64,000 bases of DNA from an uncultured Ignavibacteria bacterium (GTDB lineage: Bacteria > Zixibacteria > MSB-5A5 > CAIYYT01), in assembly GCA_964617645.1 (NCBI GenBank), contig CAZTYE010000005.1:73350-137349 (forward strand), given 5' to 3'. Both the position numbers and the translations under genes were made by a program. Under the pieces are notes generated by a model. It saw nothing but the letters and a program-made list of their open reading frames with translations. It was not told where the DNA came from and did not search any database. Shown here one piece after another: positions 14,395-63,535 of the stretch. The stretch's first letter is position 1. The number at the start of each line of letters is the position of its first letter.

Positions 14395-14554
14395 TCCCGA
14401 CCTTTGGTCGGGACGCGCGCAGCGTCATCAGACGGGGAATCTTCAAATGGGTTCGGGCAGAGTTGCGCTGCCGATCCCGACCTTTGGTCGGGATGCACAC
14501 AGCGTCATCAGGCCGGGAAATTTCAAATGGGCTCGGGCAGAGTTGAACTGCCGA
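14395..14554. repeat. Two tandem 80-bp units; each is a copy of the tRNA-Ile 3' end (T-arm + acceptor) plus ~53 nt of its 3' flank
   Basis: Units 14395..14474 and 14475..14554 align base for base: TCCCGACCTTTGGTCGGGA...CAAATGGG(T/C)TCGGGCAGAGTTG(CG/AA)CTGCCGA. The second unit supplies the real tRNA 3' end. Confidence 0.75.
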
Positions 14555-20509: not shown

Positions 20510-20995
20510 ATATCCTAAGGTGCTCGAGCTAACCCACGTTAAGGAACTAGGCAAAGTGGCCCCGTAACTTCGGAAGAAGGGGTGCTCCTAAGTAGGTGTA
20601 GCGTACAGCGAAGCCGAATGGAGTCACAGTAAAGAGGCCTGGGTGACTGTTTACTAAAAACACATGTCTCTGCTAAGCCGTAAGGCGACGTATAGGGACT
20701 GACACCTGCCCGGTGCTGGAAGGTTAAGAGGAGGGGTCAGCTTTGATTTATCATTGCGAAGCTCTGAATCGAAGCCCCAGTAAACGGCGGCCGTAACTAT
20801 AACGGTTCGAAAACGTTCCTTTCTTTCGATTCGCGATCCTTAATTCATCGGCTTTCAGCAATGAAAGCTTGTGATTATGGGCCGTTACAAAATCCGGCTA
20901 TATGCTGGAAACTCCGTGTATCTGACGCTACCCCGCCTTGGCGGGGTGACAATGCGCTCAGTGCGGACAACCAGCAGGAAAGATCAAGTCAGCTT

Positions 20996-21039
20996 GGGTG
21001 CCCCACAGACCTGTCCCGCTTTGCGGGATTGCGGTGGGA
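20996..21039. repeat. Hairpin repeat family B, copy inside the 23S insertion
   Basis: GGGTGCCCCACAGACCTGTCCCGCTTTGCGGGATTGCGGTGGGA, with nested inverted repeats CCACAG/CGGTGG and TCCCGC/GCGGGA. Confidence 0.7.
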
Positions 21040-21092
21040 AAACGTAAGCTGCTCGATATCCTCAGAGACTGTACGCCGGACGGATTTTCTCG

Positions 21093-21124
21093 GGTGCCCC
21101 ACAGCTTGCTGTGGGGTCAATGAG
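21093..21124. repeat. Hairpin repeat family A, copy inside the 23S insertion
   Basis: GGTGCCCCACAGCTTGCTGTGGGG, palindrome CCCACAG-CTTG-CTGTGGG. Confidence 0.7.
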
Positions 21125-21888: not shown

Positions 21889-22327
21889 CTGGCTGTTCGC
21901 CAGTTAAAGTGGTACGTGAGCTGGGTTTAGAACGTCGTGAGACAGTTCGGTCTCTATCTGATGCGGGCGTAGGAGATTTGCGGGGAGTTGACCCTAGTAC
22001 GAGAGGACCAGGTCGAACGGACCGCCAGTAGACCAGTTGTCGCGCCAGCGGCATGGCTGGGTAGCTGTGTCCGGTAGGGATAAGCGCTGAAGGCATCTAA
22101 GTGCCAAGCCCACCCCAAGATTAGATCTCCCTGACGTAAGTCCTAAAGGCTCCTGGAAGATGACCAGGTGATAGGTCACAGATGCAAGCGCTGCGAGGCG
22201 TTCAGTCGAGTGATACTAATTGGCCGTGAGACTTGATCTATAAATTTGTCGGCGGGGCGAGAGCATCAAACTCACCCCATCCCGATAAATCTTGATCCAA
22301 GTACGTCAAACTCTTCGGTGGCCCACA

Positions 22328-22349
22328 GCTTGCTGTGGGAAATTCGAAG
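22328..22349. repeat. Family A hairpin in the 23S–5S spacer
   Basis: CTTCGGTGGCCCACAGCTTGCTGTGGG. Confidence 0.7.
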
Positions 22350-22707: not shown

Positions 22708-22716
22708 TAAATGACA

Positions 22717-22748
22717 AAACCCCTGCTTGGAAACGAGCCGGGGTTTTT
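22717..22748 (+). terminator. Intrinsic terminator of the rRNA unit
   Basis: AAAACCCCTGCTTGGAAACGAGCCGGGG hairpin followed by TTTTT. Confidence 0.6.
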
Positions 22749-22785
22749 GGTTTGCGGTTTTGATGACCCCCGATATATTTGGAAC

Positions 22786-23085
22786 ATGACACCGAAAATT
22801 GCCATTCCGCAGGCGCAGATCGAGGACTTCTGCCGCCGGCATCACATCAAACGCCTCGCGTTGTTTGGATCCGTGTTGCGCGACGACTTCACGCCCGAAA
22901 GCGACGTCGATGTGCTGGTCGTCTTTGAGGAGGGTAAAACGCCGGGATTGGAATTCATCACCATGCAAGATGAACTTTCGGAGCTGCTTGGGCGCAAGGT
23001 CGATCTGAACACCGAGCAGTCCCTGAGTCCCTATTTCAAGAAACGTGTGTTGAACAGCCTGATGGTGCTCCATGAGCGAACGTGA
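22786..23085 (+). CDS. Nucleotidyltransferase-domain protein, MntA-type antitoxin
   Basis: Using the internal ATG at 22786 avoids overlap with the rRNA terminator. GS-x9-DxD motif (LFGSVLRDDFTPESDVDVLVVF) and typical ~100-aa size. Confidence 0.7.
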   Translation: MTPKIAIPQAQIEDFCRRHHIKRLALFGSVLRDDFTPESDVDVLVVFEEGKTPGLEFITMQDELSELLGRKVDLNTEQSLSPYFKKRVLNSLMVLHERT

Positions 23086-23353: not shown

Positions 23354-23365
23354 CATCGTTGCCGC

Positions 23366-23417
23366 GGGTGCCCCACCGACCTGTCCCGCCCTGCGGGATT
23401 GCGGTGGGATTAGACTC
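23366..23417. repeat. Family B hairpin repeat
   Basis: GGGTGCCCCACCGACCTGTCCCGCCCTGCGGGATTGCGGTGGGATTAGACTC. Confidence 0.7.
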
Positions 23418-55891: not shown

Positions 55892-57109
55892 ATGAGTATC
55901 AGCACTCTCGCGCGGGCGATTGCCGAATCCCCGACATTGAAACTCAACGAGGAAGCGCAAGACCTGCGCGACCGCGGCGAGGCCGTCATTCATCTCGGCG
56001 CCGGCGAACCGAAAAGCAAAGTCCCGTTCGAGGCTTTGCTCAACTGCGCCGCGCAGATTTCCACCGCCGAGGTGCGCTACACGCCGACCGAAGGCATCTC
56101 GCCGCTGCGCAAAGCGATCATCCGCTACACCGAAGAAAACTACGGCAAGGTGATCGGCAAAGACAACGTGATGGTCTCCGGCGGCGCCAAACAAGCGCTT
56201 TCGGTGCTGCTTACGACTTTGATCAATCCTCAGGATGAAGTGATCATTCTCGCGCCGTACTGGGTCAGCTACCCGGAAATGGTCAAGATGGTCTACGGCA
56301 AGCCGGTGATCGTCACCCCCGGTGACGGCCGTTTCGAGCCGTCGATCAAAGATGTCACGGACATGGTGAGTTCCTACACCAAGGCGATCATCGTCAACAG
56401 CCCGAACAATCCGTCCGGTGTCGTCTACTCCGAGCAGTTCATCGCCGAGATCGTGCAGTTCTGCGAGAAGAAGGGCATTTATCTGATCATGGACGACATC
56501 TACCACAAGCTCGTCTTCTCGGGCAAGTCGTGGACGTCATGTTACAAGTACGCCAAAGAGCAAGGCGACAACTCGCGCATCATTGTGATCAACGGCGTCT
56601 CGAAGCTCTACGCCATGACCGGTTACCGCATCGGCTGGACAATCGCCAACTCGCAGATCATTGAAACGATGGTCAACGTGCAGGCGCAGACGACGAGTTG
56701 CCCGGCGCTGCTGTCGCAAGTGGCCGCTGTCGGCGCGCTCACCGGTGTGCAATCGGGCGTGAACTCGCTGCGTCTGATGCTTGAAAACAATCGAAAGGTG
56801 ATGGTGCAGGAACTGAACGCCTTCGAGGGCGTCAAACTGATTCCGCCGGATGGCACTTTCTACGCGCTGCCCGACTTCCGCGCTTATAGCAGCGATTCGG
56901 TCGGCCTCTCCAAACTGCTGCTCAAACGCGCGATGGTCGTCGCCGTGCCGGGCAAGGAATTCGGCATGGAAGGCCACCTGCGCCTCAGTTTCTGCGGCAC
57001 GATCAAAGAAATCATGGAAGGCATCGCGCGGATCAAATGGGCGCTCGATCCGAAGTCACCCAACGAAATCTACATTGGCGACCGCAAGCTGGTGAGGGAC
57101 TGGAAATGA
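55892..57109 (+). CDS. Class I/II pyridoxal-phosphate aminotransferase (aspartate/aromatic type)
   Basis: PLP-lysine motif NGVSKLYAMTGYRIGW; 405 aa. Confidence 0.85.
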   Translation: MSISTLARAIAESPTLKLNEEAQDLRDRGEAVIHLGAGEPKSKVPFEALLNCAAQISTAEVRYTPTEGISPLRKAIIRYTEENYGKVIGKDNVMVSGGAKQALSVLLTTLINPQDEVIILAPYWVSYPEMVKMVYGKPVIVTPGDGRFEPSIKDVTDMVSSYTKAIIVNSPNNPSGVVYSEQFIAEIVQFCEKKGIYLIMDDIYHKLVFSGKSWTSCYKYAKEQGDNSRIIVINGVSKLYAMTGYRIGWTIANSQIIETMVNVQAQTTSCPALLSQVAAVGALTGVQSGVNSLRLMLENNRKVMVQELNAFEGVKLIPPDGTFYALPDFRAYSSDSVGLSKLLLKRAMVVAVPGKEFGMEGHLRLSFCGTIKEIMEGIARIKWALDPKSPNEIYIGDRKLVRDWK

Positions 57110-58749
57110 ACAGCAACTATCTCAATATCAAATCGCCGGCCGCTGACATCGCCCGCGAACGCGCCAGCGACTTCGGTCTGAAAAATCACGGCCTGGCGAA
57201 TCTGCACATGGTCTACTGGAATCTCGCCGAGCCGGCTCTTTACGAAGAAGCCATGTTCCGCCGCGAGGGCAGTATCTCGCATATGGGGCCGCTGGTCGTG
57301 AATACCGGCAAACACACGGCGCGCGCCGCCAATGACAAATTTGTCGTTCGCGAAGCCACCACCGAAGAACGAATTTGGTGGGGACAGTACAATCGCCCCT
57401 TCAATCCCGACAAATTCTCGAGCGTCTACGAACGCCTGCAGGCGTTCTTGCAAGACCGCGATGTCTTCGTGCAGGATTGCTACGTCGGGGCCGATCCCAA
57501 TTATCGCCTGCCGATTCGCGTCATCACCGAGTACGCATGGCACTCGCTGTTTGCGCGCAACATGTTCATCAAGATCGACGCGCTCGACGAACTCAAGCGC
57601 CACGTGCCGGAATTCACGATTATTTCCGTGCCGTCATTTCAGGGCGTTCCGTCCATCGATGGCACGCTCACGCCGACCTTCATCCTGCTCAATTTCGAGC
57701 AGCGCCTCGTAATCATCGGCGGCACCGGCTACGGCGGGGAAATCAAGAAGTCGGCATTTACGATTCTCAATTATCTCCTGCCGCTGCAAAACGTCATGAC
57801 CATGCACTGCTCGGCCAACGTCGGCAAGGCCGGCGATGTCGCGCTTTTCTTCGGTCTCTCCGGCACCGGTAAAACCACGCTCTCGGCCGATCCGCGCCGT
57901 CATCTGATCGGCGACGACGAACACGGCTGGAGCGATGAAGGCGTTTTCAACTTCGAGGGCGGCTGCTATGCGAAAGTGATCAGCCTCTCGCCAACCGCCG
58001 AGCCGGAGATTTTCGCCTGCACGCGCAAGTTCGGCACGATTCTCGAGAACGTCGTTTTCGATCCGATCACTCGCCATCTCGATCTCGACGACGACGAGCG
58101 CACCGAAAACACGCGCGCGTCGTATCCGCTCGACTTCATCGAAAATGCGCTGCCGGAGAAACGCGCCGGACATCCGAAGAACATCATCATGCTCACCTGC
58201 GATGCCAGTGGCGTCTTGCCACCGATCGCGCGGCTCACGCCCGATCAAGCGCTCTATCATTTTATTTCCGGCTACACTGCCAAAGTCTCCGGCACCGAGA
58301 TCGATCTCGGCAAAGAACCGGAGATCACCTTCTCGGCTTGTTTCGGCGCGCCGTTTATGGTGCATCATCCGTACTTCTACGCCGACCTGCTCAAGCGGAA
58401 AATCATCCGCCACGGCGTCAAATGCTGGCTGGTCAACACCGGCTGGACGGGCGGGCCGTATGGCGTCGGCAAGCGCATCAGTATCCGTTACACTCGCGCA
58501 ATGCTCGAGGCCGCCCTTACCGGCGCGCTCGATAGTGTGAAGTATCGCACCGACTCGGTGTTTGGTTTTGAAGTGCCGCTCACTTGTCCGAACGTGCCCG
58601 ATGAAGCTCTCTATCCGGAGAGCAGTTGGCCCGACAAAGCGGCGTACTCGAATCGTTACAAGCAACTCGCGTCGCTCTATGTCGAGAACTTCAAGAAGTT
58701 CACTGACGGCTGCCCCGCCGAGATCGTCGCCGCCGGCCCGCGACACTAA
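57106..58749 (+). CDS. pckA: Phosphoenolpyruvate carboxykinase (ATP)
   Basis: ATG at 57106 overlaps the upstream stop (ATGA). Kinase-1a FFGLSGTGKTTLS; the FILLNFEQRLVIIGGTGYGGEIKK region. Confidence 0.9.
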   Translation: MNSNYLNIKSPAADIARERASDFGLKNHGLANLHMVYWNLAEPALYEEAMFRREGSISHMGPLVVNTGKHTARAANDKFVVREATTEERIWWGQYNRPFNPDKFSSVYERLQAFLQDRDVFVQDCYVGADPNYRLPIRVITEYAWHSLFARNMFIKIDALDELKRHVPEFTIISVPSFQGVPSIDGTLTPTFILLNFEQRLVIIGGTGYGGEIKKSAFTILNYLLPLQNVMTMHCSANVGKAGDVALFFGLSGTGKTTLSADPRRHLIGDDEHGWSDEGVFNFEGGCYAKVISLSPTAEPEIFACTRKFGTILENVVFDPITRHLDLDDDERTENTRASYPLDFIENALPEKRAGHPKNIIMLTCDASGVLPPIARLTPDQALYHFISGYTAKVSGTEIDLGKEPEITFSACFGAPFMVHHPYFYADLLKRKIIRHGVKCWLVNTGWTGGPYGVGKRISIRYTRAMLEAALTGALDSVKYRTDSVFGFEVPLTCPNVPDEALYPESSWPDKAAYSNRYKQLASLYVENFKKFTDGCPAEIVAAGPRH

Positions 58750-58766
58750 GTTTGCTTTGGTCGCTT

Positions 58767-58790
58767 CGGTGCCCCACAGCTTGCTGTGGG
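58767..58790. repeat. Family A hairpin repeat, directly after pckA
   Basis: GCTTCGGTGCCCCACAGCTTGCTGTGGG. Confidence 0.7.
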
Positions 58791-59063
58791 TTCGTCGATA
58801 TGTCCTGTGCGCGGCTGACGCCCACGTCGGCCACGTGAGATTAGGGAGCGCATTGTGGTGACGTGTACGAAGCGTGCGGAGGCTATTGTCATTTTGGCGA
58901 AAGCCGACAGGCGATTTGACGATAATGTCGGGTGCCAAGCGGCACTGAGAGCTTAACTCGGGCGATTGAGTTCAACGTAATATCATTGACAAAATTCTAC
59001 ATCAATCTCAAAGTAATGATCAAAAATACCATCACATGAGTGAAGAGAGTTTGGAGCAAAAAA

Positions 59064-60980
59064 ATGGGTAAGGAAACTTATAGCGAGACACTTATAAGCC
59101 TTGCGATGCTCAAGGTCAATGCTGACGTAGAGGGTAAAGACTATATTGAATACTTGGTGCCTTTTGTTCAAGCCGTCCTTGCAGAGCACAATCCGAGTCC
59201 GGTGACAGCCCAAGCAACAACAGATCTGCTCTTTCAAGATTTTGGGCTCCGAGTTACAGATAGAGGTTGCGAATTAGTTCTCCGAAGGCTCGAGAAGAGG
59301 CAAATTCTCCAAAAGATCAACTACCAGTATCAAATTTCCAAATTGCCAAAGTCCGGTGACATCCGGCTCAAGCGGGAAGAAGCTCAGAAGAGGCTCGAAG
59401 AATTCATTGCGTCATTGATTGATTTCGCAGCAAGATCGTTCTCATTCGAGTGGACGACTGAAGACGCGAAGTCTGCTTTTATTCACTATCTGTCCAAGTT
59501 CTCGATTGAATGCCTCAAGGCCTTTCAACTTGGAACTGCCCTTCCTCGGGTCAACGACCCCGACCCGAAGAACGTCTACGCTTGCGCTGCCTTTATTAGA
59601 GACTTGAAGGAGACGGCCAATCCACTCTTTGAGGCCGTAATCGTCTATGTTAAAGGACACATGCTCGCCAATGCCTTGATTTGTCCCGACTTGGCCCAAG
59701 TCACAACTAAATTCAGCGGCGTTAAGTTCTACTTAGATACCCCTGTTATACTGAAACTGCTTGACCTTCAAGGGCATCACGAAAAGCGAGCGGCCGAAGA
59801 GCTTCTTGAAGTTGTTGTTGCACTCCGGGGCGAATTCTACGTCTTCGAGCATACTTTTCAAGAAGTCTTTCGCGTCATCCAAGGCGCGGAAATGCACCTC
59901 GACGATCCCAAGGGTCGGGGACGCATCGTCAGCGAAGCACGGCTACGAAACCTTAGTAAGAGTGACTTGGCGATGATACGAACCAATCTTGAGGAAGTAT
60001 TGAAACAACACTCGGTTCGAAAGATCGATACACCAGACTATAGCTTGAGCTTTCAAATCGACGAGAAGCTTCTCGCAGAAACCATTGACGATGACATCGA
60101 TTATCTGAACGAAAAGGCACTCGCTTATGACGTGAACTCCATCCGTAGCGTGTATGCACTTCGCAAAGGAAAGGAACCAACCAAGTTGGAGGACGCGAAT
60201 GCTGTGCTGGTCACCTCGAATGGAGCCTTAGCGAGAGCAGCATACGAGTACGGGAGGGAAGTCGAGTCAAGTCGCGAAGTGTCGTCTGTCATTACCGACT
60301 TCAGTTTAGCGAACATCGCTTGGCTGAAGGCACCGTTGAAGTCGCCAGAATTTCCACGTTTGGAGTTGCTGGCCTCGTGCTACGCGGCAATGGAGCCGAA
60401 GGCATCTCTTTGGAATCTCTATTTGTCCGAGATCGACAAGCTTCGAGAATCAGGTCAAGTTAGTGCTGACATGCACGCTGTCCTCCGTTATTCGTTGAAA
60501 GCGAAGGAAGAGCTCATGAACCTGACGTTGGGCTCTGAAGAAGATTTCTCTCAGAGAACTGTTACCCAGATCATTCAGCGAGTGAGCAGTGAGCTCTCCA
60601 AAGAGAAGCAGAAAGAAATCGAGGCAGAAAGACTGGCGCGGCAGGCTGAAGCTCGAGGTCGGGAGCGAGAATTGAGCCTGCGACGTGAGATCGAAGATCG
60701 TGTCAAGGCTCGGGTCTCAAAAGTCTCAGCAATATCGAGTGCGGTGATCATGGTTATGGCTGCCTTTCTAATTGTTACAGGGTCGGTATATCTCGCATTC
60801 TTCTCAGGTAATTTCGTTGAATGGCCTCTCGGTACACGAATAGTCCTGGGCCTTGCAGTGACAGTTGTATTCGTCTGGGGAATTCTCGATCTGATCCTCG
60901 GAGTCTCGGTAAGAGACGCGTCACGCAACCTCAATGAGTGGCTGCGGCGAAAACTAGAAAAATGGTTATTGCCGGGATAG
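59064..60980 (+). CDS. Hypothetical protein on a lower-GC island: PIN-like nuclease motif in the middle, C-terminal coiled-coil and two TM helices
   Basis: ATG at 59064 with a GGAG ribosome-binding site 8 nt upstream; the ORF track opens at a GTG at 59040. KFYLDTPVILKLLDL resembles PIN motif 1. Acidic FYVFEHTFQE sits ~40 aa later, and AVLVTSNGALA resembles the T-x-D motif but with N. C-terminus: KEKQKEIEAERLARQAEARGRERELSLRREIEDR, then two hydrophobic helices. Confidence 0.5.
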   Translation: MGKETYSETLISLAMLKVNADVEGKDYIEYLVPFVQAVLAEHNPSPVTAQATTDLLFQDFGLRVTDRGCELVLRRLEKRQILQKINYQYQISKLPKSGDIRLKREEAQKRLEEFIASLIDFAARSFSFEWTTEDAKSAFIHYLSKFSIECLKAFQLGTALPRVNDPDPKNVYACAAFIRDLKETANPLFEAVIVYVKGHMLANALICPDLAQVTTKFSGVKFYLDTPVILKLLDLQGHHEKRAAEELLEVVVALRGEFYVFEHTFQEVFRVIQGAEMHLDDPKGRGRIVSEARLRNLSKSDLAMIRTNLEEVLKQHSVRKIDTPDYSLSFQIDEKLLAETIDDDIDYLNEKALAYDVNSIRSVYALRKGKEPTKLEDANAVLVTSNGALARAAYEYGREVESSREVSSVITDFSLANIAWLKAPLKSPEFPRLELLASCYAAMEPKASLWNLYLSEIDKLRESGQVSADMHAVLRYSLKAKEELMNLTLGSEEDFSQRTVTQIIQRVSSELSKEKQKEIEAERLARQAEARGRERELSLRREIEDRVKARVSKVSAISSAVIMVMAAFLIVTGSVYLAFFSGNFVEWPLGTRIVLGLAVTVVFVWGILDLILGVSVRDASRNLNEWLRRKLEKWLLPG

Positions 60981-60990
60981 AGTGCGCGTG

Positions 60991-61039
60991 TGTACCACCG
61001 TGCAGTCCCGCCTTGCCGGATTGCGGTGGGATTAGACTC
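60991..61039. repeat. Family B hairpin repeat, directly after the low-GC gene
   Basis: TGTACCACCGTGCAGTCCCGCCTTGCCGGATTGCGGTGGGATTAGACTC. Confidence 0.7.
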
Positions 61040-61180
61040 TGATTGAGGCACTCATCCCCAATCTCGAACTGCCTTCTTCGTGGAGCACGAAAGCGGACTT
61101 GCGTGTCCCCAACAGTCAACGCCTCACATTAAATTCTGCCGTGCTTTGGGCATCACGCCGCAGGCGTCGTCGAAAAATCA

Positions 61181-61238
61181 ACCCTCATCCCCAACCCCTC
61201 TCCCTGACAGGGAGAGGGGCAAGGGGAGAGGGTCGCGC
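61181..61238. repeat. Family F palindromic repeat (CCCTCTCCCTGACAGGGAGAGGGG core), upstream of the DUF559 gene
   Basis: CCCTCATCCCCAACCCCTCTCCCTGACAGGGAGAGGGGCAAGGGGAGAGGGTCG. Confidence 0.7.
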
Positions 61239-61267
61239 ATCATTCCAAGAATCGTTATCTTACATTG

Positions 61268-61633
61268 ATGGGCAAACTTCCGCCGTACATGATCGCGCTT
61301 TGCCGTGAACTTCGTAAAAACCAGACCGACGCAGAAGCGCTCCTGTGGGCTTGCCTGCGACGAAAGCAACTTGGCGGATTCAAATTCCGACGGCAGCATC
61401 CGATCCGGCGTTATGTCGCGGACTTCTGCTGCATCGAAGAAAAGCTGATAATTGAACTCGATGGGGAAGTTCATAATGATGCTGATCGACATGACTACGA
61501 TCGGCGACGCGTTAATGAACTGAGATCGCGCGGCTTTCGAGTCATGCGCTTCCGTAACGAAGCGGTGCTTGAGCAGACGGAGAATGTTCTTCGCAAGATT
61601 CTCTCGGCCCTCACCCCCAACCCCTCTTCCTAA
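61268..61633 (+). CDS. DUF559 endonuclease-domain protein (Vsr-like fold)
   Basis: ARELRKNQTDAEALLWACLRRKQLGGFKFRRQHPIRRYVADFCCIEEKLIIELDGEVH is the canonical DUF559 core. Its 3' end runs into a family F repeat that encodes ...LTPNPSS. Confidence 0.8.
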   Translation: MGKLPPYMIALCRELRKNQTDAEALLWACLRRKQLGGFKFRRQHPIRRYVADFCCIEEKLIIELDGEVHNDADRHDYDRRRVNELRSRGFRVMRFRNEAVLEQTENVLRKILSALTPNPSS

Positions 61634-61660
61634 GCGGAAGTGGGGCAGGGAGAGGGTCGC
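61608..61660. repeat. Family F repeat variant overlapping the DUF559 3' end
   Basis: CCCTCACCCCCAACCCCTCTTCCTAAGCGGAAGTGGGGCAGGGAGAGGGTCG. Confidence 0.65.
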
Positions 61661-61665
61661 GAGTC

Positions 61666-61900
61666 TACTCCTGACGGCACGATGAAGCTGGATTCCGGCG
61701 TTCGCCGGAATGACGAACTCGGCTGGATTCCCGCTTTCGCGGGAATGACACGCACCAAGAAAAGTTTCTCCATGCGTTGTCTTCCCCGCGCAGGCCGAAG
61801 GTCCCGCGCTTCAGAGGGACGGGAAACCAGCGGTCTCGAAAATCAAACCCTCACCCCCAACCCCTCTCCCTGACAGGGAGAGGGGCAAGGGGAGAGGGTC
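61666..61900. repeat. ~235-bp composite repeat (RS3-like ATTCCC-N8-GGGAAT modules + family F), copy 1
   Basis: CCTGACGGCACGATGAAGCTGGATTCCGGCGTTCGCCGGAATGACGAACTCGGCTGGATTCCCGCTTTCGCGGGAATGACACGCACC...CCCGCGCTTCAGAGGGACGGGAAACCAGCGG...CCCTCTCCCTGACAGGGAGAGGGG. Near-identical to 63041..63272. Confidence 0.8.
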
Positions 61901-61911
61901 GTGAGCCCAAT

Positions 61912-62055
61912 CCCGACCGAGGTCGGTTCCGTCAGGATTGGAATCCTGACGGCGCAAAGAATGGCGCATTGCCATGCGCCCCGATGCGATGAAATTAACG
62001 CTCGTCGACGATCTCTCCCACTGTCAGGGCATGGGGCGCAGGAAGAGGGTCGGGC
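61912..62055. repeat. Partial family C module + module D + family F' variant
   Basis: CCCGACCGAGGTCGGTTCCGTCAGGATTGGAATCCTGACGGCG, then GGCGCATTGCCATGCGCCCCGATGCGATGAAATTAACGC, then CTCTCCCACTGTCAGGGCATGGGGCGCAGGAAGAGGGTCG. Confidence 0.6.
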
Positions 62056-62056
62056 C

Positions 62057-62953
62057 TCAATCGCGCTTGATCAGGCTGCCGTAATTCAGTGTTATCGATT
62101 CGCCCGGCTCGGCGTCGAAGTGCTTGAAGACGTTGAGCTTCACCAGTCCAAACGGTCCATAGTGCTGTACATAAAGTTCTCGAATTGGCGTTAAGTCGAA
62201 GCGAAGCCTCGCGCTCATCCGGCAACGCTCGCCGCCACAATCTGCATTGCGGCAATGATCATCGTTGTCGTAGTGGCGAAGGTAGAGATTGGCTTGAACC
62301 GGATCTGATTCCATGAAAGTCCGCGGCGCCATGTACATGAAGAAATAGTGATTCTTGCAGCCGCCGCCGAATTCGACATCCAGGATAATCGTATCCCTCA
62401 GAACCCGAGCAGCGACGAGATCATACTGGTCATGCGACAATCCCGAAACATAGTCAGTAAACATCACAGTGCCGGTCAATGAATCGGAAGGCGCTGACCT
62501 TGAGACCATGAGACCCGCTCGCGCATCCGGCATCGGTGGCGTGGCTAAATCGTCGATTCTTCCGAGATTTGGATCGGGGAACAGGGAATGCAACTCGAAG
62601 TAATAGCCGTTCCAGAACACCCGACGTCGGGAGCAGTCACCGTCGGACGCAGCGCCAATGATCCCCAGCGTCAGAAGCTGTGCTGGAGTCGAACCGCGTT
62701 TGACCAGGATGGTGGCCTCGGCGTAGCCGGGGAATAGATATTCGGGGTGCTCGGGATGGCGCAGATCGACCGATGTGCCATTGAAAGTTACGGCTAAATC
62801 TTCACCGTGCACGCGCGCAGTTTGGCGATAGTCGAGAATGAACGATTGCTCCATCTGGACGACAATGTCACGATCGTCATCTTCATTGCATTGAATGGTG
62901 AGCAGGGAGAAAGCAGAGATGGCAATGATCGCGAGGGAAGTGGAATATCGCAT
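62057..62953 (-). CDS. Secreted hypothetical protein (possible lipoprotein)
   Basis: 298 aa. Signal peptide MRYSTSLAIIAISAFSLLTIQCNE. No recognised catalytic motif. Flanked by the ~235-bp direct repeats. Confidence 0.5.
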   Translation of the reverse strand: MRYSTSLAIIAISAFSLLTIQCNEDDDRDIVVQMEQSFILDYRQTARVHGEDLAVTFNGTSVDLRHPEHPEYLFPGYAEATILVKRGSTPAQLLTLGIIGAASDGDCSRRRVFWNGYYFELHSLFPDPNLGRIDDLATPPMPDARAGLMVSRSAPSDSLTGTVMFTDYVSGLSHDQYDLVAARVLRDTIILDVEFGGGCKNHYFFMYMAPRTFMESDPVQANLYLRHYDNDDHCRNADCGGERCRMSARLRFDLTPIRELYVQHYGPFGLVKLNVFKHFDAEPGESITLNYGSLIKRD

Positions 62954-63040
62954 GCGTATGTCCTCCTACCCTGAAGGGACGCAAATGTAGACGAATTGTG
63001 CAACGCCGATTTGTGGATACGCTTGCCGAAGGCGAGTCCA

Positions 63041-63272
63041 TTCCTGACGGCGCGATGAAGCTGGATTCCGGCGTTCGCCGGAATGACGAACTCGGCTGGA
63101 CTCCCGCCTTCGCGGGAATGACACGCACTAAGTAAAGTTTCTCCATGCGTTGTCTTCCCCGCGCAGGCCGAAGGTCCCGCGCTTCAGAGGGACGGGAAAC
63201 CAGCGGTCTCGAAAATAAAACCCTCACCCCCTACCCCGCTCCCTGACAGGGAGAGGGGCAAGGGGAGAGACG
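63041..63272. repeat. ~235-bp composite repeat, copy 2, same orientation as 61666..61900
   Basis: Near-identical sequence. Differs by a few substitutions, e.g. ACTAAGTAAAG vs ACCAAGAAAAG. Confidence 0.8.
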
Positions 63273-63330
63273 GCGCACAAGACCGTCATGCCGACGGAAG
63301 TCGGCATCCAGCTTCTTTGCTGTTGCTAAC

Positions 63331-63535
63331 CTGGATTCCGGCGTTCGCCGGAATGACGGGCTCGGCCGAATTCCGGCTTGCGTCGGAATGACAGTCTCCC
63401 CAACAGGGAGAGGGTCGCGTAACCAGCGCGATCGGGAATCCTTTCCCGACCGTTGCCCATGCCGTCAGGATCGGAATCATGACGACGCGATGCAGGGCGC
63501 ATGGCAATGCGCCCCGACGCGAATTAGTCTCGTCA
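63331..63535. repeat. Partial family E module + family C module + module D
   Basis: CTGGATTCCGGCGTTCGCCGGAATGACGGGCTCGGCCGAATTCCGGCTTGCGTCGGAATGAC..., then CGATCGGGAATCCTTTCCCGACCGTTGCCCATGCCGTCAGGATCGGAATCATGACGACG, then GGCGCATGGCAATGCGCCCCGACGCGAATTAGTCTCG. Confidence 0.65.

Follow-up and report, generated by a model that had tools for sequence, protein, structure and literature searches.

Two described bacterial defence nucleases, PrrC and SNIPE, are among the closest known systems to the gene that is the subject of this article. PrrC is almost exclusively embedded in type I restriction-modification (R-M) systems, is held inactive by EcoprrI, and is described in the guilt-by-embedding study as a back-up that is released once the R-M enzyme is inhibited (10.1101/2024.01.29.577857). 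SNIPE is a membrane-bound GIY-YIG nuclease that cleaves phage DNA during injection; its anchor restrains the nuclease, removal of the anchor makes the protein toxic, and its N-terminal region is poorly conserved (PMC13190303). Here we analyse a gene for a protein of 638 amino acids (aa) that lies directly 3' of pckA in a 64,000-nucleotide stretch of contig CAZTYE010000005.1 from an uncultured bacterium of the Zixibacteria (the whole stretch is referred to as the window, and positions are counted from its first letter). We put at roughly 0.6 the probability that this gene is a complete, horizontally acquired member of a family of membrane-anchored PIN nucleases and acts as an anti-phage or anti-plasmid effector. 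The architecture of the family, i.e., a winged helix, a PIN nuclease domain, a coiled-coil stalk and a membrane hairpin in one chain, is unlike that of any characterised system. The family resembles single-gene nuclease-based defence genes, including those embedded in R-M systems, with an architecture not described elsewhere.

The gene, the segment that carries it and its native flank are located as follows.

57103..58749, plus strand: pckA, ATP-dependent phosphoenolpyruvate carboxykinase, the native flank; homologues carry PF01293
58750..61169, plus strand: 2.4-kb segment with the 638-aa gene, a single-gene insertion of low GC content without counterpart at the relatives' site
59064..60980, plus strand: 638-aa open reading frame (ORF), intact member of an unnamed family with winged helix-turn-helix (HTH), PIN, coiled-coil and two-transmembrane-helix parts

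The frame as such extends over 59040..60980 on the plus strand from a GTG codon, and the ATG at 59064, which yields 638 aa, is preceded at a distance of 8-9 nucleotides (nt) by a GGAG at 59052-55. It contains no frameshift and no internal stop codon. Among the window's 45 non-overlapping ORFs with 150 aa or more, the gene has the lowest GC content (0.491), and the GC content at third codon positions (GC3) is 0.536 compared with a window mean of 0.671 (standard deviation 0.061) and with 0.80 and 0.74 in the upstream aminotransferase gene and pckA, respectively. This composition is consistent with recent acquisition. A promoter and terminator scan gave no plus-strand promoter and no terminator for the gene, its counts being no better than those in shuffled sequences.

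The site downstream of pckA was compared with that in three related Zixibacteria contigs, in which pckA is 91%, 82% and 81% identical to that of the window, and the 638-aa gene is absent from this site in all three (PckA homologues assign the source organism to the Zixibacteria, the named ones at 77-78% identity being from this group). The nearest available relative, contig L088 (pckA 91% identical), is syntenic with the window up to the pckA stop codon, with 80% identity by blastn up to window position 58740. In L088 the stop codon is followed by 15 nt and then by a palindrome that matches window positions 61170-61233, after which come a DUF559 gene, a second palindrome, a methyltransferase gene and gatE-gatD. 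Synteny breaks at the pckA stop and resumes at this palindrome, and therefore window positions 58750-61169 represent 2.4 kb without counterpart. The DUF559 homologue of the relative (L088:11730-12071) has 51% protein identity with that of the window and matches it in position and in its flanking palindromes. The two other relatives, L089 and a Joint Genome Institute (JGI) contig, each carry different small genes after pckA, and the JGI contig also has a DUF559 gene 3' of pckA. A 646-aa product encoded 3' of pckA in relatives was considered as the same gene and rejected, being GatE with PF02934. The site 3' of pckA is a variable insertion point in Zixibacteria, and the 638-aa gene is an accessory, horizontally acquired, one-gene insertion directly 3' of pckA. 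An earlier annotation of the window, generated by a model from the letters alone (the first-pass annotation), had placed the ORF at 59064..60980, had described its GC content as below that of the surroundings and had proposed to check related genomes for presence or absence of the gene; the start codon behind the GGAG, the composition and the empty sites in the three relatives agree with that description.

The 638-aa gene is a member of a large, unnamed family without a Pfam, NCBIfam or PADLOC model. A word-indexed search found at least 743 homologues clustered at 90% identity, all of ~640 aa and 36-48% identical over 95-100% of the query, and when 50%-identity representatives were searched exhaustively, 3,254 matched at E <=1e-3 and 1,212 at E <=1e-30. 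Scanning one genome per GTDB species gave 119 confirmed family loci. The 80 of these that were kept are distributed over more than 15 phyla, among them Acidobacteriota, Planctomycetota, Chloroflexota, Nitrospirota, Gemmatimonadota and Verrucomicrobiota, and include Bdellovibrionales, Spirochaetia, several proteobacterial classes and candidate phyla. In the source records seen, the members are called 'hypothetical protein', apart from occasional JGI labels, e.g., 'predicted transcriptional regulator'.

Model searches gave little. The 638-aa protein matches no Pfam, NCBIfam or PADLOC model, with no family of PADLOC-DB 2.0.0 found at E up to 1, and the same database gave no family for the E. coli-type (Klebsiella plasmid) and Enterococcus members. 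The protein and 39 homologues scanned singly against Pfam, NCBIfam and PADLOC gave sub-threshold coiled-coil or membrane matches only, e.g., to DUF2207_C, DUF2721 and CorA, and the PADLOC search with one member embedded in an hsd (type I R-M) operon gave only a match of the coiled-coil region to LeoBC (E 2.8e-4). PADLOC-DB 2.0.0 does contain PDC candidate models, of which PDC-M69B was seen as a match elsewhere, and none of them matches the family; we take these to be the candidates of the guilt-by-embedding study, and we presume from the release that the HEC models are in the database as well.

The mean column identity of the family is 38%, and 18 residues are invariant among 119 homologues that align with 95-100% of the window protein at 36-48% identity (R75, N203, D209, D225, H263, E267, P324, D356, R367, N386, N417, W420, L421, K422, P424, P431, H471 and L474), all 18 of which are present in the window protein. 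D225, E267, D356 and N386 are invariant in a separate set of 65 sequences as well, so the three acidic residues are strictly conserved. The domains, delimited with an AlphaFold2 model built from the 119-sequence alignment (predicted local distance difference test, pLDDT, 88; predicted template modelling score, pTM, 0.73), are the following.

59064..59336, plus strand: predicted winged HTH, residues 1-91, with a basic recognition helix and invariant R75
59361..59699, plus strand: helical domain, residues 100-212, ending in the invariant GHMLAN(203)ALxCPD(209)L motif
59706..60338, plus strand: predicted PIN-like nuclease domain, residues 215-425, with invariant D225, E267, D356, N386 and N417/W420/K422
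60351..60533, plus strand: second helical domain, residues 430-490, with invariant H471 and an ELMNLTLG motif
60552..60713, plus strand: long charged helix, residues 497-550, presumed coiled-coil stalk, sequence KEKQKEIEAERLARQAEARGRERELSLRREIEDRVKARV
60714..60914, plus strand: membrane hairpin of two hydrophobic helices, residues 551-617, then a basic amphipathic tail, 618-638

The alignment-based model replaced a single-sequence AlphaFold2 model that was all-helical with a pLDDT of 43. Throughout the family, the winged helix has a basic recognition-helix region (+3.9 over 17 residues), and for the helical domain 100-212 no structural match was reported. The PIN-like region (residues 221-422 of the model) alternates between beta and alpha elements with five strands, and is predicted to form a three-layer alpha/beta/alpha fold with a parallel five-strand sheet, as in the PIN superfamily. 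Foldseek against the PDB gave no E-value below 0.04 and no match to the whole protein; the closest structural neighbours of the PIN-like domain are all tRNA- or rRNA-cleaving VapC-type RNases. D225 follows strand 1 in an FYLDTP motif whose VapC counterpart is YLLDTN. E267 (HTxxE) is located six residues past strand 2 and has its counterpart in the Glu that stands ~40 residues after the first Asp of VapC, D356 is at the N-terminus of helix 350-366 and corresponds to the Asp of 'D..IAA', and T384-S-N386 ends strand 4 (VTSN) and lines up with the VTNN/VTRN strand of true VapCs. The order of these residues relative to the strands follows the D-E-D-(T.N) pattern of real VapCs. The PIN domain of the 638-aa protein is probably catalytically active.

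The fold and the three-acid pattern are thus what the family has in common with VapC and the PIN superfamily, whereas a match to PIN sequence models and the fourth acidic residue are absent. VapC is ~130 aa long compared with 638 aa here, and the family differs from it further in the lack of sequence-level similarity to PIN models, in a ~75-residue insertion between the Glu and the second Asp, and in the fusion of the PIN domain to a winged helix, two helical domains, a stalk and a membrane hairpin. VapBC modules have an adjacent antitoxin gene, whereas the family has no separate one; because there is no antitoxin, the family is not a VapBC module.

C-terminal to these domains the model has a low-confidence linker (residues 490-503), one very long helix (497-580) and two further helices (589-635). 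Hydrophobic segments extend over ~551-582 and ~587-617, with Kyte-Doolittle 19-mer peaks of 2.4 and 2.6. Of the first 25 family members listed (with 0-8 hydrophobic runs each), most have these two segments at the corresponding place, and the hairpin is also found in the E. coli, Klebsiella and Enterococcus members; across the family the segments are kept in position and barely in sequence. The distribution of hydrophobic residues predicts that the ~550 N-terminal residues form a body in the cytoplasm, carried on a stalk, and that the chain then passes through a membrane hairpin to end in a cytoplasmic tail. A pore-forming effector was also considered for the C-terminus and set aside as the less probable role, since conservation in position only fits an anchor better. 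Several statements of the first-pass annotation concern this protein, namely that it has a central PIN-like pattern with a T-S-N element, that it ends in a basic coiled coil and two transmembrane helices, and that it matches no named system. FYLDTP (D225), HTxxE (E267) and VTSN (N386) proved invariant in the 119 homologues, the T-S-N element aligns with the corresponding VapC strand, the charged helix and the hairpin are where they had been placed, and PADLOC, Pfam and NCBIfam supply no name; the structure prediction that the same annotation had recommended yields a PIN-like fold with a VapC-like acidic triad.

The genomic context of the family was analysed by clustering all ORFs within 5 kb of the family gene at 86 loci; the ORF caller takes the most upstream start codon, so intergenic distances are approximate. 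The three dominant neighbour families are HsdS, HsdM and HsdR as identified by Pfam. By profile detection, hsdM and hsdS lie upstream on the same strand at 33 loci, and in 24 of the 33 hsdR is also found downstream, always in the order hsdM-hsdS-X-hsdR where X is the family gene. The hsdS stop codon abuts the family start or overlaps it by 1-4 nt at 18 loci, and the family stop overlaps the hsdR start at nine or more. A neighbour-joining tree divides the family into two clades: one of ~65 loci that includes all 33 hsd-embedded cases, and one of 17 sequences that includes the window protein. No conserved small neighbour was found in the 86 loci or in the 16 loci of the window clade.

By analogy of gene order, the hsdS-X-hsdR slot of the family corresponds to the position of prrC in EcoprrI. 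The slot with its overlapping frames is shared with PrrC/RloC by about half of one family clade; PrrC is a known RNase and the family a predicted one, and both are without antitoxin. In contrast, PrrC and RloC consist of an N-terminal ABC-type ATPase and a C-terminal anticodon nuclease, whereas the family has a PIN fold and no ATPase according to Pfam, NCBIfam and the structural model, and has a membrane anchor and a winged helix in addition. Lacking the ABC ATPase, the family is not PrrC/RloC. The PADLOC models, among them PrrC according to 10.1101/2024.01.29.577857, do not match. At four loci (L033:5099-5998, L026, L077 and L086) we also observed a protein of ~200-300 aa that carries an HExxH motif (LAHECVHLL) and matches no Pfam model, encoded between or beside hsdM and hsdS.

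Copies outside R-M operons are found in several settings. Single loci of the window clade have a prophage tail gene and a transposase, ParE-RHH (ribbon-helix-helix), an integrase, or insertion sequence (IS) IS1595 with BrnA as neighbours, and other members of this clade lie simply between housekeeping genes, as does the window gene, which stands alone between pckA and repetitive extragenic palindromic (REP) elements. In the larger clade, members that are not embedded sometimes have a gene for a UvrD/GajB-like helicase behind them, or genes for a CapP/RmrA-like peptidase and a DUF4411-like protein. In two Bdellovibrionales metagenome-assembled genomes (MAGs; L040:11955-13636 and L046) a gene for a CapP/RmrA-like HTH-peptidase follows the family gene within 0-11 nt, and a 166-aa PIN-like protein that begins with MPYLLDSNIFIQ and resembles DUF4411 is also encoded; this arrangement may be a three-gene variant of the system. 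A single instance from Syntrophobacter fumaroxidans (CP000478.1, L001:7355-7600) has a gene for an 81-aa DUF6650 protein 400 nt upstream of the family gene, by a prophage tail gene; DUF6650 is among the domains newly implicated in defence by DefensePredictor.

The family also extends to mobile elements of cultured bacteria. A tblastn search of plasmids found proteins of ~650 aa with 20-27% identity, all annotated as hypothetical, in Enterococcus faecium, Klebsiella quasipneumoniae, Pantoea, Arthrobacter, Sporosarcina and Hymenobacter, and on the Klebsiella and Enterococcus plasmids examined the gene lies between IS elements (the Klebsiella plasmid protein is WP_258336611.1). The family profile aligns with members from cultured bacteria end to end (positions 7-633, E 1e-83 to 1e-95), and the E. 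coli, Klebsiella and Enterococcus members, at 22% identity, keep D225, E267, D356, N386 and the WLKxP motif. A DNA-level search of 5,426 complete E. coli genomes found the gene in two, both times in a P2-like prophage. In NZ_CP070026.1 the gene (4009886-4011862, protein WP_204691543.1) is located between the tail-fibre assembly gene G and the sheath gene FI, which in the P2 gene order H-G-Z/fun-FI is the site of the Z/fun lysogenic-conversion locus; the Z/fun locus is known to exclude T5. In NZ_CM149560.1 its neighbours are ogr and gene D. For P2, antiviral cargo is reported at Z/fun, for which no position is given, and at a tail-gene hotspot (PMC13586616). DefensePredictor Table S10, a table of uncharacterised clusters found in 3,000 E. 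coli strains, lists the protein of the second strain, WP_096936374.1, as a 'Predicted novel defense gene' that has a mean log-odds of 8.9 and no remote defence homologue. One family member has therefore been flagged by machine learning, and the family itself is without a name; no paper was found that cites any of four family-member accessions.

Other PIN or PIN-like nucleases have been tied to defence by embedding or machine learning, namely HEC-03B and HEC-09 (PADLOC) and DS-3 and DS-5 (DefensePredictor). HEC-09, in which a PIN-like (NYN) domain comes after an HTH-like N-terminus, gave no protection in published tests, DS-5 requires a second protein, unlike the single-gene family described here, and none of the four is described as having a coiled coil and a membrane hairpin.

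Taken over the whole family, a function in defence or in conflict with mobile genetic elements is quite likely. The defence reading is supported by three independent immune-gene signatures, i.e., embedding in type I R-M operons at the PrrC position, P2-prophage accessory loci, and a high DefensePredictor score. The first-pass annotation had put the gene forward as a candidate defence or abortive-infection effector, and these signatures, which it could not draw on, support that proposal. Regarding the mechanism, we favour a latent endoribonuclease because the closest folds are VapCs, the site is of the minimal VapC type, and the embedded clade copies the PrrC arrangement with translational coupling; a PrrC-like mechanism of this kind seems to us possible, with a chance somewhat short of even. 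In such a mechanism the hairpin and the stalk would hold an auto-inhibited PIN endoribonuclease at the inner membrane, with the winged helix and the helical domains acting as sensor and lid. As there is no antitoxin, the N-terminal domains would both sense the trigger and gate the active site. Infection would release the VapC-like RNase onto tRNA, rRNA or mRNA and translation would stop before the phage cycle is completed, which would amount to abortive infection. In the hsd-embedded clade the RNase would probably be triggered when the Hsd complex is lost or blocked, as is the case for PrrC; the window copy, which falls in the standalone clade, would have to detect infection by itself.

If the family does act in defence, it would be a new defence family and could show how a PIN RNase stays silent without an antitoxin. 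It could also reveal whether membrane tethering is a general restraint on immune nucleases, as reported for SNIPE. With members in E. coli, Klebsiella quasipneumoniae and Enterococcus faecium, the function is directly testable in model hosts. A more specific proposal, which we regard as speculative and on balance unlikely, is that the family constitutes a class of immune nucleases at the inner membrane that works with type I restriction enzymes, either guarding the Hsd complex or cutting invading nucleic acid at entry. In the guarding version the PIN endonuclease would fire when phage anti-restriction proteins disable the Hsd complex, and the standalone versions, including that of the window, would have become autonomous sensors. 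Were this proposal true, R-M systems would be physically linked to the membrane, and the family would be a widespread defence system of novel architecture, present in more than 15 phyla as well as in E. coli prophages and on Klebsiella and Enterococcus plasmids.

Several findings weigh against the reading of the family as membrane-anchored PIN nucleases that act in defence. Both the defence function and the nuclease activity of the family are predictions, and the assignment to PIN depends on predicted structure, as sequence profiles reach no PIN model. No curated PIN model of Pfam or NCBIfam matches the window protein or the 39 members scanned, and profile searches of PDB sequences find no PIN, their matches (VAMP2 and anoctamin with the full-length profile, histone H4 with the profile of the PIN region) being noise. 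When the PIN region is compared with four VapCs by hhalign, only 13 columns are aligned, which place FYLDTP on YLLDTN; since this is the first motif only, the mapping of the catalytic residues is based on the fold and the order of secondary-structure elements, and it is from the same order that we infer that D225, E267 and D356 come together in space. Canonical PINs have a fourth acidic residue that is lacking here: N386 is invariant, and position 389, the counterpart of the D/E in VapC 'R-D/E-F', is L or F. The contextual evidence as a whole is drawn from relatives 20-45% identical to the window protein, and the strongest part of it, embedding among hsd genes, from relatives 35-40% identical. 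None of the 17 members of the window clade is hsd-embedded, which is a further difference from PrrC/RloC; the window copy follows pckA, and no neighbour is conserved in the 16 loci of its clade. WP_096936374.1 is not in the DefensePredictor tables of screened or validated units, a tblastn search of GenBank phages gave no match, and only two of 2.9 million viral contigs in IMG/VR match the family, neither with an hsd-embedded copy. Finally, a membrane anchor is not an obvious restraint on an RNase whose target is cytosolic tRNA.

This last point favours the main rival explanation, in which the protein acts directly on incoming nucleic acid, much as SNIPE does. Here the protein would be constitutively localised at the membrane, the winged helix would bind nucleic acid, and the PIN domain would cut phage or plasmid DNA, or the first transcripts, as they cross the inner membrane; the anchor would keep the nuclease off the chromosome, so that location would provide the discrimination between self and non-self, and R-M embedding would reflect cooperation on incoming DNA rather than guarding. 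Tethering does not keep an RNase from cytosolic tRNA, and because of this the explanation accounts for the anchor better than a latent RNase does. Like SNIPE, which is toxic without its anchor (PMC13190303), the family combines a membrane anchor, a nucleic-acid-binding module and a nuclease in one polypeptide encoded by a standalone gene. Its hairpin, conserved in position and hardly in sequence as expected of a plain anchor, parallels the poorly conserved N-terminal region of SNIPE, and the basic recognition helix and the NZ_CP070026.1 copy between G and FI of a P2-like prophage, the presumed Z/fun locus, are in keeping with direct action as well. On the other hand, the nearest folds are all VapC-type RNases and the site is the minimal three-acid VapC site, not the richer FEN/Exo1 pattern. 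The order of parts is reversed, with a C-terminal hairpin on a stalk of ~50 residues instead of an N-terminal single-pass helix, and there is no sign of contact with the phage injection machinery. SNIPE contains DUF4041 and GIY-YIG, whereas the family contains a winged helix and PIN and has no homology to SNIPE; because neither SNIPE domain was found in the Pfam scan, the family is not SNIPE. We consider direct cleavage at the membrane unlikely.

VapBC systems pair a DNA-binding antitoxin with a PIN toxin, and a winged helix that precedes a PIN domain in one chain recalls this pairing. The family might then be a fused toxin-antitoxin-like module for addiction or exclusion, in which a PIN toxin is combined with its own DNA-binding N-terminus and which has no general immune role; it would stabilise its carrier, be it an R-M operon, a plasmid or a prophage, or would act at the membrane as superinfection exclusion by a prophage. 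The carriers, i.e., IS-flanked plasmids, prophages and R-M operons, would all gain from addiction, and ParE/RHH and BrnA are neighbours at two loci. This possibility is weakened by the solitary chromosomal copies and the lack of a partner gene: no labile antitoxin is encoded separately, the standalone clade lacks any conserved neighbour, and many copies, including that of the window, stand alone between chromosomal housekeeping genes with nothing to stabilise. We hold it to be improbable, with the qualification that many toxin-antitoxin modules are now known as defence systems, and addiction and defence are not mutually exclusive. The family could also have no role in conflict at all. Its members would then be regulators or RNA-processing factors that are tethered to the membrane and have a degenerate PIN-like fold, and their contexts would be incidental. 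The absence of a sequence-level match to any nuclease family and of the fourth acidic residue would agree with such a role, and a winged helix with a membrane anchor is the layout of some membrane-tethered transcription factors, which that of the family resembles. This explanation is weakened by the distribution of the family, which is spread patchily over more than 15 phyla, is absent from the site in close relatives and has copies at prophage-hotspot and plasmid locations. Further points against it are the composition of the window gene, which is atypical for the genome, the 33 of ~65 clade members in type I R-M operons with overlapping frames, for which chance is far below 1% by a rough estimate that was not computed, and the strict invariance of the three acidic residues in spite of the 38% mean column identity. 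We regard it as highly improbable.

The segment with the 638-aa gene is bordered by repeats, a DUF559 gene and a further ORF, which are listed below.

58768..58790, plus strand: REP-like hairpin A, GGTGCCCCACAGCTTGCTGTGGG, directly after pckA; fold -16 kcal/mol, z -1.4
60985..61039, plus strand: REP-like hairpin B, directly 3' of the stop codon of the 638-aa gene; fold -24 kcal/mol, z -1.9
61181..61233, no strand: palindromic REP F with CCCTCTCCCTGACAGGGAGAGGG core, where synteny with L088 restarts
61268..61633 (alternative start 61265), plus strand: DUF559 gene (Vsr-like endonuclease fold), PF04480, native to the site and outside the insertion
61659..61896, plus strand: left copy of a 238-nt direct repeat, a composite of REP modules (families D4, D6 and D2)
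62057..62953, minus strand: 298-aa ORF with an N-terminal signal-like sequence, MRYSTSLAIIAISAFSLLTIQC, between the two 238-nt repeats
63032..63269, plus strand: right copy of the 238-nt direct repeat, 96% identical to the left copy

Within the window, hairpin A recurs exactly at 21093 and with one mismatch at 22317 (chance expectation 0), and hairpin B has copies at 20993 and 23363. The palindrome CCCTCTCCC...GGGAGAGGG occurs in five copies, and the same REP-like modules cluster at 14.4 kb and 20.9-26.5 kb of the window. Rfam gave only sub-threshold, miRNA-hairpin-like noise on the palindromes. The DUF559 gene, which matches PF04480 with 133.7 bits (cut-off 20.6, E 3e-39 in Pfam), is set between palindromes at 61181-61233 and 61596-61661. 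We considered the repeats as a mobile element that carries the 638-aa gene and rejected this, since L088 has the REP-DUF559-REP unit without the gene, and the window has A, B and F modules at other places too. The unit is native to the site, and the density of repeats thus reflects the genome rather than the gene; the REP-like elements around the 638-aa gene are genome-wide and form no part of it. The first-pass annotation had called this a repeat-dense accessory region with an A and a B hairpin, a DUF559 endonuclease among family F repeats, and two ~235-bp direct repeats that flank a gene for a secreted protein. Each of these elements was found, the direct repeats being 238 nt long and the gene between them the 298-aa ORF, and the description of the 638-aa gene as accessory stands, whereas the repeats are not special to the locus and belong to the genome and to the DUF559 unit.

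The remaining observations concern other parts of these repeats. The 298-aa ORF, which has no Pfam, NCBIfam or PADLOC match and is absent from L088, looks together with its flanking 238-nt repeats like a second lineage-specific insertion. Another REP-type cluster at 14395-14554 is a tandem duplication of an 80-nt unit, 88% identical, with a TCCCGACC...GGTCGGGA hairpin. The arrangement of hairpin A, a cargo gene and hairpin B occurs twice in the window (58768-58790 with 60985-61039, and 22317-22339 with 23363-23417), and the second pair surrounds a 124-aa nucleotidyltransferase-like ORF on the plus strand (22711-23085) that resembles the MNT half of a HEPN-MNT pair; at 20993-21115, B and A are 46 nt apart with no gene between them. 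The arrangement might be a REP-bounded cassette site. In a Nitrospira MAG (L038:7794-9992), a DUF559 domain with similar translated-repeat flanks interrupts an HsdS reading frame, and window positions 61181-61661, L088:11650-12164 and L038:7794-9992 together suggest a small mobile unit of DUF559 plus REP.

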